Source of the DNA: an uncultured Candidatus Saccharibacteria bacterium
Lineage (GTDB): Bacteria > Patescibacteriota > Minisyncoccia > Phycocordibacterales > WO2-35-19
DNA length: 41,298 bases
Direction: 5' to 3'
Assembly (NCBI GenBank): GCA_964455485.1
Contig: CAYVXT010000003.1
Location: 1 to 41,298, forward strand
The position numbers and the translations under genes are program-made. The notes beneath the pieces were generated by a model. The model searched no databases. It was not told where the DNA came from and saw only the letters and a program-made list of their open reading frames with translations. This document shows, piece by piece, positions 8,398 through 34,376 of this stretch (position 1 is its first letter; every line of letters begins with the position of its first letter).

Positions 8398-8452
8398 ATA
8401 AAATTTTAAGTTGATTGAATCGAAAAATATGTTAGATTTGTATATGCATATT

Positions 8453-8536
8453 GCGTCGGTGGTAGAGTGGTCAATTACAACAGACTGTAAATCTGTCGCC
8501 CATCGGGCTACGCAGGTTCGAATCCTGCCCGGCGCA
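8453..8536 (+). tRNA. tRNA-Tyr (anticodon GTA)
   Basis: Acceptor GCGTCGG/CCGGCGC plus A, anticodon loop CTGTAAA, class II variable arm, T-arm GCAGG-TTCGAAT-CCTGC. Confidence 0.9.
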
Positions 8537-8542
8537 CCCAGG

Positions 8543-8566
8543 AAAAACTGCTGCAAAGCAGTTTTT
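8543..8566 (+). terminator. Hairpin plus T-run after tRNA-Tyr
   Basis: AAAAACTGC-TGCAAA-GCAGTTTTTT. Confidence 0.6.
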
Positions 8567-8575
8567 TCTTACCTT

Positions 8576-8811
8576 TGCTCCGGGAGGAAAAGCGTGGGAC
8601 GCTTTTCCGTCAGGATTCGAACGACGGAGAGGGACCCGCTTTAGCAAAAGCGGGAGCGAGTCGGTGCCCAGACCAAAAAAGTTTTGACGAAAACTTTTTG
8701 AGTCGAGGGTGAGCTTGGGGTGGGACCCAAGCGCAAGACTTATTGAGACTGAACAAAGTGAGGTCCAATAAGTAGACAGCTTCTGTAAGAAGAAATTCCT
8801 GCCCGGCGCAC
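8576..8811 (+). ncRNA. TEC-Tyr-L: long tRNA-end-capped structured RNA (group-I-intron-like core?)
   Basis: 5' TGCTCCGGG pairs with 3' CCCGGCGCA. CAGGATTCGAAC (8611-8622) is the reverse complement of GTTCGAATCCTG in tRNA-Tyr. Three hairpins have compensated stems relative to the 39.1-kb copy. The last 15 nt (8797-8811) are identical to tRNA-Tyr 8523-8537. Confidence 0.65.
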
Positions 8812-8850: not shown

Positions 8851-8927
8851 CGAGTAGCTTCGATGATCAAATCGAAGCGTTACATAGGATTCGAAAGGTG
8901 GAAGAAATTTTTCAGCAGAAAAATTTC
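8848..8927 (+). ncRNA. TEC-2: 3'-truncated short element
   Basis: Hairpin GCTTCGAT-GATCAA-ATCGAAGC, then ATAGGATTCGAAAGGTGG, then hairpin AAATTTTTC-AGCA-GAAAAATTT. This matches the layout of TEC-Asn-S (38160-38291) but lacks the 3' tRNA-like end. Confidence 0.45.
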
Positions 8928-8951
8928 CTAAAAAATTGCTATAATAATAAA

Positions 8952-9870: not shown

Positions 9871-10371
9871 ATGACGACACTTCAGGTGTGGAAGAAGGTC
9901 CCGACGATCAAAGGTGCCTCCAGAATGAAAGAGTTGATTGCGATTGTAGGAAAAAGCTGTGTCATCAGACCGGCAGCACGAGAGTTGTGCGAGCGAGTAG
10001 AGGAAAAATTCTCGCTTCCAGCCGGCGACACCAGCGTAGCTCTTCTCTCGATGGCGGATCTTGGCTTCAGCCAGGGTGTGCCATTCTACGAGTTCTACGA
10101 TCGCGCTGCGGAACAGGGCTACCAACTCTGCACTCCCGAAGTGGGATTGCTGATCAGGAAAGCCTTCAGTAAAGGAGAGCAGCACTCCCGTCCCGACCGC
10201 AGTTTCCGTTGCATTTATGTGGCAATGGAACCTGTCGAAATCGGTATCGGCGAAACCGCTGTCCTTTCGTTGGAAGTCACCGACACCGAAGCTGAATTAC
10301 GTGCGGCACGATGTATGCCGCAGACAGCTTTCGGACCGTCGGAGAAGTGGGCTTTCAAGGTTCCTGCTTAA
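9871..10371 (+). CDS. Hypothetical protein (GC-rich cassette)
   Basis: 166-aa ORF with a strong SD. No recognisable motif. Confidence 0.6.
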   Translation: MTTLQVWKKVPTIKGASRMKELIAIVGKSCVIRPAARELCERVEEKFSLPAGDTSVALLSMADLGFSQGVPFYEFYDRAAEQGYQLCTPEVGLLIRKAFSKGEQHSRPDRSFRCIYVAMEPVEIGIGETAVLSLEVTDTEAELRAARCMPQTAFGPSEKWAFKVPA

Positions 10372-10492
10372 GATCCTTAAACTGGGGCCAGTTTCGGCTG
10401 GCCCTCCTACCAGAGTTTTTCAGAAATGGAGAATTGCGGTGGGAGACTGCAAATCCCTAAATCTCAGATCTGTACTTTCAAAGGAGAAAGTC

Positions 10493-10840
10493 GTGAGCTT
10501 ACTTAGTCGATTGATCTACATGTATTTCCGCATCGCACTCTTCTTCGGAAGAGAGATGCACGTCTACAACGTGAGCAGCCGCTGGGGCTCGAGGACTGAC
10601 AGGATTCCGCATCGCTACAACGCGGCGTGGGAAATCCAGAAGGTTCTGGAGAAGAAGGGTTGGCCCCGCTGTGCGTTCTGTGGCTGGGTAACCAAGGAGT
10701 TCGACGAGCACCTCAAAACGGGCGAAGGATACTGCTACCAGCAGTCCATCGGCAACCCCGGAGTGCCGTGGGATCAGGAACCTGACCCACAGCTCTCCTA
10801 CGACAAGATGCCTGATCGGCTCCGTCACTGGCCGGCGTAG
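10493..10840 (+). CDS. Hypothetical Cys-containing protein (GC-rich cassette)
   Basis: The GTG start follows AAAGGAGAAAGTC. The in-frame upstream part of the tracked ORF lacks an SD. A CAFCGW motif is present. Confidence 0.5.
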   Translation: MSLLSRLIYMYFRIALFFGREMHVYNVSSRWGSRTDRIPHRYNAAWEIQKVLEKKGWPRCAFCGWVTKEFDEHLKTGEGYCYQQSIGNPGVPWDQEPDPQLSYDKMPDRLRHWPA

Positions 10841-10945
10841 AAGTTCTTTCTTGGGCGAGTCAGAAATGATTCGCCCTTCCATCAAAGTATTTTTCTTTAA
10901 GAATATTTTGATGGGAGTAAAATCCGAGTTCTTTAGGAGATGAAT

Positions 10946-11161
10946 ATGGCAAATTACGAAGTTTGGTATACGGAAATTCGATACCGTGACCAAACACGCA
11001 CCTGGATGACTTCTTCTGATCGAAAGTCGACTCCTTTCGAGGAGTCGAGCGATGAGAAAGCGAGAGAGATCGCAAAAGCGCTCATGAACGCGCCGAGCGA
11101 TGATCCTCTTGTAGACAGGAGAATTCCTATTAAGCTCGTGAAAGTCATTGAGATCATGTAA
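10946..11161 (+). CDS. Hypothetical small protein (GC-rich cassette)
   Basis: AGGAG lies 6 nt upstream of the second ATG. The ORF is about 71 aa. Confidence 0.5.
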   Translation: MANYEVWYTEIRYRDQTRTWMTSSDRKSTPFEESSDEKAREIAKALMNAPSDDPLVDRRIPIKLVKVIEIM

Positions 11162-11175
11162 AAAGGAGCAGGACA

Positions 11176-11616
11176 ATGAAGCAAACTCTTATTCTGACTT
11201 ACAATCGGGTTCAGGGGTTCGCTCCTGGCTCGCACGGCAATGATCGCGTTGTGATCCACAAGATCGACAAAGACGCTTTCACCGAAGAAAACTACGAGAA
11301 GGCGACAGCGGCACTCCGAGCTCAGGTTTCCGTGAGTAATCCACTCGAAACTGAAGCCTACGTGTATCTGGGTTATTCGGGAGGAGAAGAGCAATACTCC
11401 CACTTGCAACGCAGGGTATTCAGAGCAGCGACAGAAACCGTCCTGGCCTTGATAAAGGAAAGGGCCCGTATTCATATTGTTGGCTGCACCTGCTTCAGCA
11501 CCAGCAAGCGGGAGTTCACTGAAGCTAGTGGCTTTGACTACATTGAAAGCAAAGAGTGTGGTGGCCATCTGAAGCTCGGCAAAATTGTCAGTGAGATTCT
11601 CAAGACTACTGCTTAG
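11176..11616 (+). CDS. Hypothetical protein (GC-rich cassette)
   Basis: AAAGGAG SD, 146-aa ORF, followed by a terminator. Confidence 0.6.
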   Translation: MKQTLILTYNRVQGFAPGSHGNDRVVIHKIDKDAFTEENYEKATAALRAQVSVSNPLETEAYVYLGYSGGEEQYSHLQRRVFRAATETVLALIKERARIHIVGCTCFSTSKREFTEASGFDYIESKECGGHLKLGKIVSEILKTTA

Positions 11617-33203: not shown

Positions 33204-34376
33204 ATGGTAAATTTAGGATTTTGGAAAAAATCAAAAAGCCCAATATTGTGCTTGGCGCCGATGGCAGATGTTACAGATGCAGCTTTTAGATACATCATTG
33301 CAAAATATTCCAAACTTGCTCGAAGTCCAGAAAAAACTTCTTCGAGCGTGCCTAGCGAGCGCGACTGGCGCGAGCTCGAGGAATTTTCTAGCAAGAAAAT
33401 ATCCGTGCAAAGCGAGAAGAACGTTTTTTCTGGACTATACCCTTATGCTACTTGGACAGAGTTTGTGAGTGCAGATGGGTTGGTGAGAGCGCCGGAGGAG
33501 GGTAGGAAAAAGCTTTTGAAAGATTTGGAGTATTCTGAAATTGAAAGGCCAATAGTTGCACAATTTTTTACAAGCAAACCGGAAATGATGGAAAAGGCAG
33601 CAGCTCTAGCGGTGGAACTTGGGTTTGATGGTATTGATATAAACATGGGCTGTCCTGACAAAAGTATTGAAAAGCAAGGTGCGGGGGCTGCGCTTATAAA
33701 AAATCCAACACTTGCTAAAGAAATTATTTTGGCTGCCAAACGAGGTGTGGCCCTTCGACAAGCTCAGGGCGAACGACAACTTCCTGTATCGGTGAAAACA
33801 CGCTTGGGTTATAACAAAGATGAATTAGAAACTTGGCTACCTGCTCTTTTGGAGGCGGAGCCAGCTGTTATGACTATTCATGCGCGCACTAGGAAAGAGA
33901 TGTCAAAGGTGCCAGCAAGGTGGGAGAGGATAAGGAGAGCAGTGGAGATAAGGGATGAGATTCAAAGAACCTCACCCCTAGCCACTCTCCTAGAAGCAGG
34001 AGAGGGGAAAAACGAAGAGGGAAAGACCTTAATCTTCGGGAATGGGGATGTTTTGAGTGTGGAAGATGCATACAAAAAGTGTGCAGAAACAGGAGCAGAC
34101 GGAGCGATGCTTGGTAGAGCTATTTTTGGCAACCCGTTCCTTTTTTCGGGCCACACGCCAACTTTGGAAGAGAAGTTGAAAGTGTTGGTGGAGCATTCAA
34201 AACTTTTTGAGCAAAAACTTGGAGCCATCAAAAATTTTGCAGTAATGAAAAAACATTTTAAATCATATATAGGCAGTTTCAGTCACTCTAAAGACTTGCG
34301 CGAAAAGTTGATGGAAGCAGAGAGTGCTGGTGATGTAGAAAATGTGGTAAGTAATTTTTTGATAAGTTATAATTAG
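33204..34376 (+). CDS. tRNA-dihydrouridine synthase carrying in-frame GC-rich insertions
   Basis: Contains LAPMADVTDAAFR, DGIDINMGCP and VSVKTRLG, all Dus/FMN TIM-barrel motifs. Confidence 0.88.
   Translation: MVNLGFWKKSKSPILCLAPMADVTDAAFRYIIAKYSKLARSPEKTSSSVPSERDWRELEEFSSKKISVQSEKNVFSGLYPYATWTEFVSADGLVRAPEEGRKKLLKDLEYSEIERPIVAQFFTSKPEMMEKAAALAVELGFDGIDINMGCPDKSIEKQGAGAALIKNPTLAKEIILAAKRGVALRQAQGERQLPVSVKTRLGYNKDELETWLPALLEAEPAVMTIHARTRKEMSKVPARWERIRRAVEIRDEIQRTSPLATLLEAGEGKNEEGKTLIFGNGDVLSVEDAYKKCAETGADGAMLGRAIFGNPFLFSGHTPTLEEKLKVLVEHSKLFEQKLGAIKNFAVMKKHFKSYIGSFSHSKDLREKLMEAESAGDVENVVSNFLISYN
33315..33395 (+). repeat. 81-nt in-frame TEC-like insertion inside dus
   Basis: Terminal stem CTTGCT/AGCAAG, hairpin CTCGAAG...CTTCGAG, and GAGCGCGACTGGCGCGAG, which is nearly the same as GAGCGCGACGGCGCGAG in TEC-Asn-S. 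It encodes LARSPEKTSSSVPSERDWRELEEFSSK. Confidence 0.55.

Follow-up and report, generated by a model that had tools for sequence, protein, structure and literature searches.

An in-frame insertion in a Patescibacteria tRNA-dihydrouridine synthase gene is a copy of R1, a dispersed palindromic family with a structured core

The tRNA-dihydrouridine synthase (Dus) gene on contig CAYVXT010000003.1, of which we analyzed positions 1 to 41,298 (the window), contains GC-rich palindromic segments that lie in frame. This raises the questions of what these segments are and whether they are tolerated in the enzyme or removed at the RNA level. The original prediction, made from the letters of the window, held that an 81-nt palindromic unit (33315-33395) had entered the gene, that it was kin to a unit beside tRNA-Asn termed TEC-Asn-S, and that two further palindromes lay in frame downstream. 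We found that the insertion is longer than predicted and belongs to a family, named R1 here, to which the 'TEC' units are related. We consider it likely that Dus carries a non-autonomous, selfish element of the R1 family, resembling the palindromic elements of Rickettsia and translated as a tolerated surface excursion.

The host gene is intact (Table 1). The source genome belongs to the Patescibacteria (Parcubacteria/Paceibacteria), the window is AT-rich (~38% GC), and the closest Dus homologs, at 57-65% identity, are encoded by metagenome-assembled genomes (MAGs) of Zambryskibacteria, Paceibacterota and similar groups. The protein has the Dus TIM-barrel domain with its conserved catalytic blocks, in which residues C150, K198, and H226 are invariant across an alignment of 40 orthologs; these orthologs range from 309 to 416 aa and reveal at least five insertion hot-spots in Dus of this clade. 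An AlphaFold2 (AF2) model built with the ortholog alignment had a mean predicted local distance difference test (pLDDT) score of 83.7, and Foldseek matched it to the structures 3b0u and 1vhn with target-normalized template modeling (TM) scores of 0.80-0.81. Low pLDDT was confined to inserts, namely 51-64 at residues 41-80 (insert 1, the subject of this study) and 60 at residues 261-270 (insert 3).

Table 1. Features of the Dus locus and R1 relatives. Positions refer to the window unless a locus is named.
Feature	Position	Strand	Basis
tRNA-dihydrouridine synthase (Dus), host gene, intact, 390 aa	33204-34376	+	Pfam PF01207, E 1.2e-52; PDB Dus matches
Insert 1, whole in-frame insertion, 123 nt = 41 codons, LARSPEKTSSSVPSERDWRELEEFSSKKISVQSEKNVFSGL	33315-33437	+	Absent from insert-free orthologs; low-pLDDT segment
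Long hairpin (element proper), outer stem P1 with 5' arm ~33324-33343 and 3' arm ~33414-33436	33324-33436	+	Folding
Match to covariance model R1: three-way-junction core and inner P1	33336-33422	+	78 bits, E 6.7e-20
P2 helix with tandem G.A, AGC-GA-GCGC-(GACUG loop)-GCGC-GA-GCU, includes GAGCGCGACTGGCGCGAG	33354-33376	+	Both P2 segments covary across 60 and 129 copies
P3 hairpin GGAATTTTCT-AGCA-AGAAAAT(A)TCC, best-conserved part of the family	33380-33404	+	Exact 25-mer in at least 119 genome stretches among the matches listed
Insert 2, ALRQAQGE, short palindrome GCCCT...AGGGC (33750-33770)	33750-33773	+	Ortholog alignment
Insert 3, ~RTSPLATLLEAGEGKNEEG, holds palindrome 33975-34007	33966-34022	+	Insert-free orthologs exist
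Divergent second R1 member ('TEC-Asn-S'), 86 nt downstream of tRNA-Asn	38198-38280	+	34.7 bits, E 1.6e-7 (rough), full model length
tRNA-trailer R1 variant (tRNA-Asn, Ile, Trp, Arg)	Window 38113-38310; L087 1886-1978; L090 669-730; L060 4547-4637		
Isolated P3-like hairpin AAAUUUUUC-AGCA-GAAAAAUUU, tRNA-Tyr-adjacent	8903-8928	+	Weak partial R1 match, 17.8 bits, E 0.011

Many Paceibacteria orthologs in the alignment have no insert at this site, among them P0006, P0011, and P0014, with sequences such as IIAKYSK-IKYVTYTEF. Between the LAPMA..TD..FR and TEFVSA blocks, the window Dus has 51 residues compared to eight in T. maritima Dus (1vhn). The segment is therefore a true insertion of 41 codons rather than 27. 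The prediction correctly placed the insert between the APMADVTD and TEFVSADG blocks, a stretch that is short in other Dus proteins. The 81-nt segment is also in frame, encoding LARSPEKTSSSVPSERDWRELEEFSSK (residues 38-64 of the 390-aa ORF), and complementarity is present in both CTTGCT/AGCAAG and CTCGAAG/CTTCGAG. These pairs are not the stems of the element: AGCAAG belongs to the apical loop region of helix P3, the CTTGCT leader is not conserved in orthologous copies, and CTTCGAG, which belongs to the outer stem, has its pairing partner downstream. We rejected the 81-nt unit and its stems for the 123-nt insertion and its 113-nt hairpin (z of only -2.81 vs -4.73). This hairpin has the closing strands AGUCCAGAAAAAACUUCUUC/GAGAAGAACGUUUUUUCUGGACU, a 14-nt perfect inverted repeat detected by BLAST, and a minimum free energy (MFE) of -52.5 kcal/mol, with z-scores of -4.73 when folded as RNA (0/200 shuffles) and -5.91 as DNA.

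The same Dus codon position is occupied by an insert in two orthologs, P0108 (locus L001) and P0002 (L002). The centers of these inserts are near-identical to that of the window copy, and their outer arms are wholly different yet still paired. Identity among the three forward copies at this site is 87-90% in the core, where 31 nt are at 100%, against 65-74% in the Dus coding block that is conserved best (third codon positions, 48%). The peptides encoded by the arms are unrelated. Because the core is better conserved than the coding block while the arm peptides share nothing, the constraint acts on the nucleic acid and not on the peptide.

We scanned the 25-nt P3 sequence GGAATTTTCTAGCAAGAAAATATCC against one genome per GTDB species. 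Exact matches occurred in at least 119 genome stretches among the matches listed, all from Patescibacteria MAGs except for one 1.7-kb contig labeled Flavobacterium. The hosts include Paceibacterota, Zambryski-, Yonath-, Nomura-, Vogel-, Taylor-, Giovannoni-, Wildermuth-, and Moraniibacteria, and some R1-bearing MAGs are labeled generically 'Saccharibacteria'. Single MAGs hold several exact-core copies: at least seven each in ELA554 and SRP292972_co3_134, and five each in REEB237 and H43-bin056_1. A covariance model of R1, run on 718 kb of fetched loci, recovered 129 copies. The element spans ~105-125 nt and consists of a short unpaired 5' leader (its window counterpart being CTTGCTCGA), a long outer stem, and a three-way junction at the tip. 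In the consensus, the outer stem P1, whose inner part reads ..GGAGAC/GU(G)CUCC.., is followed by P2, a junction CGA, and P3. P2 reads WGC-GA-[4 bp + GACG/GACUG loop]-GA-GCW, with tandem G.A pairs, and P3 reads GGAAUUUUCU-AGCA-AGAAAAUAUCC, i.e., GGAAUUUUCU-AGCA-AGAAAAU(A)UCC, with an AGCA loop and a bulged A. Many copies have further tandem G.A steps (CGA...GAG) in the outer stem, which differs between copies and remains paired, and is near-identical within recent lineages.

Covariation supports this structure throughout. In 60 hand-picked copies, 90.3% of the alignment cells were paired, compared to 70.4% in shuffles and 42-52% with slid partners, and 431 double-sided changes were counted against 138 in shuffles. 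The alignment of 129 copies, which is fitted to the model, had 92.8% of cells paired and 1007 double-sided changes against 280 when shuffled; across both sets, pairing was 68-70% in shuffles and ~45% for slid partners. Covariation extends to all four helices, with P3 covarying even in copies without the exact 25-mer, and variant P3 copies show compensatory changes with 99.9% pairing. The structure also settles the kinship between the Dus insertion and TEC-Asn-S. The match of GAGCGCGACTGGCGCGAG (33357-33374) to 38215-38231 is real (17/18, with one indel), but alone it is at chance level by BLAST within the window (E ~3.5-5), so the link becomes significant only with the structure-aware covariance model. 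The kinship survived this alignment, with a full-length R1 match and compensatory changes in P3. Together with the ortholog alignment, the model bears out the proposal that a unit of a palindromic repeat family lies in frame in Dus.

Searches of Rfam 15 gave nothing at E ≤ 10 for the window copy and only sub-threshold chance matches for a canonical R1 copy. We found no description of R1 in Rfam, in a 2024 review of MITEs (transposable elements of the miniature inverted-repeat type), or in literature on Patescibacteria MITEs or palindromes, structured RNAs of the candidate phyla radiation (CPR), or the sequence strings. R1 is thus an apparently undescribed family, widespread in and specific to the Patescibacteria (class Paceibacteria-like lineages). 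Assembly artefacts are an unlikely source of its copies because independent ENA, JGI, and NCBI assemblies agree.

The element is conserved as a fold of one strand. We compared G.U with A.C oppositions in P1, with the register chosen by Watson-Crick matches only and related copies then clustered. An earlier count on MFE structures was discarded as confounded. On the + strand of R1, the G.U to A.C ratio was 80:27, or 60:24 after clustering (p 1e-4), and this strand had the lower MFE in 97 of 122 copies. Because the folded strand is found mainly on the locally C-rich side, a skew-type mutation bias would predict the opposite of this asymmetry. Selection at the level of the nucleic acid, acting on one strand, maintains the R1 core.

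Most R1 copies lie outside genes. Only 19 of 113 (~17%) lie inside long ORFs, compared to 64% of random positions. The remainder are intergenic, for example after recR or between groES and groEL; they often start within ~12 nt of a stop codon, show no co-orientation with the flanking genes, and in many cases are flanked by A and T runs. The genes with internal copies, as identified by Pfam, encode SecA, UvrB (two sites), UvrC, TsaD, Tgt, Fmt, RNase HII, ComEC, MetRS, and a SAM methyltransferase; RNase R, judged by eye, is a further host. Dus carries R1 at the present site (in both orientations), at an EIRDEIQ site (reverse), and near FGNPW (forward), and the P0002 gene has two copies (L002 79-165, + strand; 708-795, - strand). 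All ORF-internal copies are stop-free, ten forward and nine reverse, and each orientation uses one reading frame. Forward copies read EEFSSKKISV (EFSSKKI) in 10/10 cases, and reverse copies read TDIFLLENSSCS (DIFLLEN) in 8/9; a protein-database search with the reverse-frame peptide gave a single candidate. Of all R1 copies, only 26% and 42%, respectively, lack stops in these frames, and other frames are open more often. A search for genes split by a copy yielded 20 candidates, 11 of which were checked by translation or Pfam (antisense artefacts at the window and L044 copies are among the rest). None of the 11 pairs was a split gene: six were adjacent separate genes and five were spurious short frames. 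The stop-free, single-frame copies and the lack of split genes among the checked candidates therefore favor translation through the insert, with selective filtering, over excision at the RNA level. On the question left by the original prediction, sequence evidence thus favors an insert that is tolerated and translated.

Several comparisons indicate that R1 moves. The sister Dus genes P0002 and P0076, whose flanking DNA is ~93% identical, differ by a 105-nt insert that is the palindrome, a case of presence and absence between close relatives (L002 vs L123). In the MAG REEB237, 122-nt copies that differ by 1 nt, arms included, occur in the genes for UvrB, Tgt, and MetRS (GAAACAGAAAGCGAAGCGACC...GGUCGCGGAGCUU). 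This near-identity extends through the arms, and hence the mobile unit is the whole hairpin with its short unpaired 5' leader. The left flanks of the three in-gene copies in this MAG (L044, L063, L102) are also alike (TTGAAGGY / ATGAA preceding GAAACAG), a hint that R1 prefers GAA-rich targets. The CGA...GAG sequences that recur at R1 flanks look structural, in that they form tandem G.A.

In four different genomes, a tRNA gene is followed directly 3', on its own strand, by a variant of R1 (GGAGCGCGACGGCGCGAGG-YGGGGUCGC-P3-GUGACC). This variant may be an expressed tRNA-trailer RNA or an end of the element. In the window, the region that encloses TEC-Asn-S (38113-38310) has a fold z of -8.67, and Rfam searches of the tRNA-Asn region, at gathering thresholds and at E ≤ 10, returned only tRNAs and sub-threshold hairpin noise.

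Taken together, R1 moves around genomes as the whole hairpin, arms included, and leaves no visible target-site duplication; the copies that survive are mostly those just outside genes. Within genes, copies persist only when in frame, stop-free, and in a permissive region, of which Dus offers several. We propose that such copies are transcribed and translated into a hydrophilic, poorly ordered excursion, EEFSSKKISV when forward and TDIFLLENSSCS when reverse. The core probably acts as the structure recognized by a machinery that copies or moves the element through a single-stranded DNA or RNA intermediate.

A number of observations weigh against this model. Neither the three REEB237 copies nor other flanks show a visible target-site duplication, and clustering of 1487 ORFs revealed no transposase or recurrent partner gene within ~4-8 kb of R1 copies. 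R1 also has no conserved terminal inverted repeats: its arms vary by copy and subfamily, and its conservation is central. Given the lack of such repeats and of a visible duplication, R1 is not a textbook MITE. That forward copies occupy one and the same Dus site in three or four scattered lineages would fit repeated insertion, an ancient insertion with many losses, or gene conversion. Across loci L003-L121 and the window, the folded (+) strand of R1 lies on the locally C-rich strand in 76 cases vs 35 (p 1e-4) and therefore mostly antisense to neighboring genes, an orientation that argues against a simple function within the host mRNA. Finally, translation of the insert is deduced from reading frames, and its placement at the surface is suggested by low AF2 confidence and by its position between core elements.

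The alternatives differ in what they make of the conserved fold. One holds that the insert is an intervening sequence, either a mini-intron or a hairpin that is cut by RNase and religated, such that mature Dus mRNA and protein lack it. The very stable, conserved, RNA-like fold with its covariation and G.U asymmetry would suit such a process, as would the rRNA-gene insertions of CPR bacteria, which are absent from mature rRNA. Excision would, however, make an open frame needless, yet the ORF-internal copies are stop-free with one frame per orientation. An excision signal in RNA would also work in one orientation only, whereas the in-gene copies are ten forward and nine reverse. No gene is interrupted by an out-of-frame copy in the checked candidates drawn from ~113 copies, most copies are intergenic, and neither the window copy nor the canonical copy has an intron or ribozyme match in Rfam. 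We therefore regard excision as very improbable. More specific versions were discarded: a self-splicing intron or ribozyme, given the lack of an Rfam family match; and a translational bypass element, since the insert is in frame and stop-free. For an intein, no Hint or splicing domain was found, Pfam detects only Dus, and the insert is 41 aa compared to the at least ~130 aa needed. The reading that the segment is a fast-evolving, lineage-specific Dus loop, with its palindrome and its likeness to 38215-38231 coincidental, has almost nothing left to commend it. The short match is within chance by itself (E ~3.5-5) and Dus of this clade has several hypervariable loops, but the same nucleotide core occurs at 119 or more unrelated genomic places among the matches listed, mostly non-coding, the covariance model gives E 7e-20, and the arms stay paired while the peptides they encode are unrelated. 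We rejected this reading on account of the paired arms, the dispersed core, the covariation, and the R1 score.

Two further readings treat the fold as functional. R1 may primarily be a structured RNA or DNA module that benefits the host, for example by stabilizing or terminating transcript ends, by binding a protein, or as a small RNA with tRNA-trailer master copies, with the in-gene copies being by-products or regulatory. A core conserved above the coding sequence, the three-way junction with tandem G.A motifs and strand-specific pairing, and the many copies within ~12 nt of a stop codon with A and T runs at their flanks are all in line with this idea, as are the variant directly 3' of tRNA genes in four genomes and the larger fold there (z -8.7). 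Against it, R1 is not co-directional with adjacent genes and is, if anything, antisense; copy positions vary between genomes; and near-identical copies in three unrelated essential genes of one genome look like parasitic spread. We judge host benefit improbable as the primary role of R1, although it is compatible with mobility and bears on why the core is conserved. A bolder idea, to which we give a small but real chance, is that R1 is a Patescibacteria-wide structured module that serves as substrate or guide of an unrecognized mobilization or RNA-processing system. It would be a SINE-like (short interspersed nuclear element-like) or single-stranded-DNA (ssDNA) hairpin element with expressed 'master' copies in the tRNA trailers, and its in-gene copies could modulate essential mRNAs or be processed out of them.

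The two downstream palindromes of Dus exist as predicted and are also in-frame inserts that vary between lineages; the position given for 33975-34007 was exact, and that for GCCCT...AGGGC was off by 1 nt. At the site of insert 2, orthologs have nothing or unrelated peptides, except that three orthologs share RQAQG. Its hairpin is a weak fold, and no further copy was found in the window by BLAST or in the fetched loci by exact palindrome match. It reads LRQAQGE, and FDKLRA in another frame. Several Dus orthologs have short N-terminal inserts, namely PFDGTQDKP, PLDSARGKP, and SHDAEASRDKP; together with the insert 2 peptides, these resemble what we take to be GC-rich repeat-derived peptides of many metagenomic proteins. 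At the site of insert 3, P0015 (locus L122) has a larger palindromic insert with two hairpins, and insert 3 is a homolog of the first of these. Its family differs from R1 and yields SPL...GEG peptides. At L122 2715-2867, the EIRDEIQ hot-spot, the hairpins CCCCTCTCCT..AGGAGAGGGG and CCCTCCCCT..AGGGGAGGG lie inside an outer stem and encode SPL..GEG..SPDQGEG, whereas insert 3 holds only the first of the two. At the R1 hot-spot, P0015 has a perfect ~72-nt hairpin (L122 2112-2204; -46 kcal/mol) without the R1 core; it represents either another palindromic family or R1 minus its core. The MAG of P0015 also contains, immediately after recR (L115), a 'Dus-type' R1 copy.

Elsewhere in the window, the 3' ends of tRNA-Tyr (..TCCTGCCCGGCGCAC) and tRNA-Asn (..TCCTACCCGCGGAGCC) each recur ~270 nt and ~1.2 kb downstream (8452-8811, 38038-39326). 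A direct repeat of 149 nt (8657-8805 and 39174-39322; 90% identity) has its end precisely in these duplicates, an arrangement that resembles the att-type duplications that small modules leave on integrating at tRNA genes. A 1.5-kb segment (10001-11500) has a GC fraction of 0.50-0.53 compared to ~38% for the genome, with no Rfam match.

The family accounts for part of the protein length heterogeneity of Patescibacteria, as in Dus, and calls for caution in gene calling, alignment, and phylogenomics of CPR genomes. Its in-gene copies constitute a natural map of insertion-tolerant loops in essential enzymes, and it offers a well-covarying RNA or ssDNA fold that can be searched with a covariance model.

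Among known systems, R1 can be compared with bacterial MITEs (Correia/NEMIS, ERIC, RUP, BOX, Nezha, and the Coxiella QMITE), which are likewise short, non-autonomous, multi-copy, and hairpin-forming, and mostly intergenic near gene ends with occasional in-frame intragenic copies. In contrast, the conserved terminal inverted repeats and target-site duplications that define MITEs are not seen in R1, nor was a parental insertion sequence (IS) identified. Repetitive extragenic palindromic (REP) sequences and their composite REPINs, associated with the transposase RAYT, and elements of the IS200/IS605 type rely, as R1 probably does, on a strand-specific, single-strand hairpin, often with a bulged base, as the recognized structure, and R1 resembles them also in showing no visible target-site duplication; compensatory stem evolution has been reported for REPINs. 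R1 has no visible GTAG/CGTC head motif and no Y1/HUH transposase among the 1487 neighboring ORFs. It is a single three-way-junction hairpin rather than a REP doublet or a left-end/right-end pair, and its folded strand is mostly located on the C-rich strand. The bypass inserts of T4 gene 60 and the mitochondrial 'byps' of Magnusiomyces are also GC-richer hairpins in the coding regions of an AT-rich genome, but they interrupt the frame and depend on codons for take-off and landing plus a stop, whereas in-gene R1 copies are in frame and stop-free.

The closest parallel is with the palindromic elements of Rickettsia (RPEs), reportedly described by Ogata and colleagues in 2000 (Science 290:347). 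RPEs and R1 are both hairpin elements of ~100-150 nt dispersed in a small, AT-rich genome. Both lie in frame in unrelated housekeeping genes (a large share of RPEs do so) and encode a conserved peptide per family, the host proteins stay functional with the insert presumed on the surface, and no transposase is linked. Like RPEs, which comprise RPE-1 to RPE-10 (PMC10969869), R1 is multi-copy in single genomes, occupies housekeeping genes in frame and without stops, and shows evidence of mobility. The 2024 MITE review singles out RPEs and leaves CPR/Patescibacteria unmentioned. The two belong to different phyla and are likened by features, not by sequence. RPEs are conserved along their length, whereas R1 is conserved at the central three-way junction while its arms diverge with compensatory change, an 'inside-out' architecture of a conserved structured core with co-evolving arms; R1 also has a tRNA-trailer variant and a strand-specific G.U signature. 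By this analogy, R1 would be functionally the Rickettsia palindromic element phenomenon in another phylum, and the in-frame palindromic colonization of essential genes, largely viewed as a peculiarity of Rickettsia, appears in an unrelated, ultra-reduced episymbiotic radiation.

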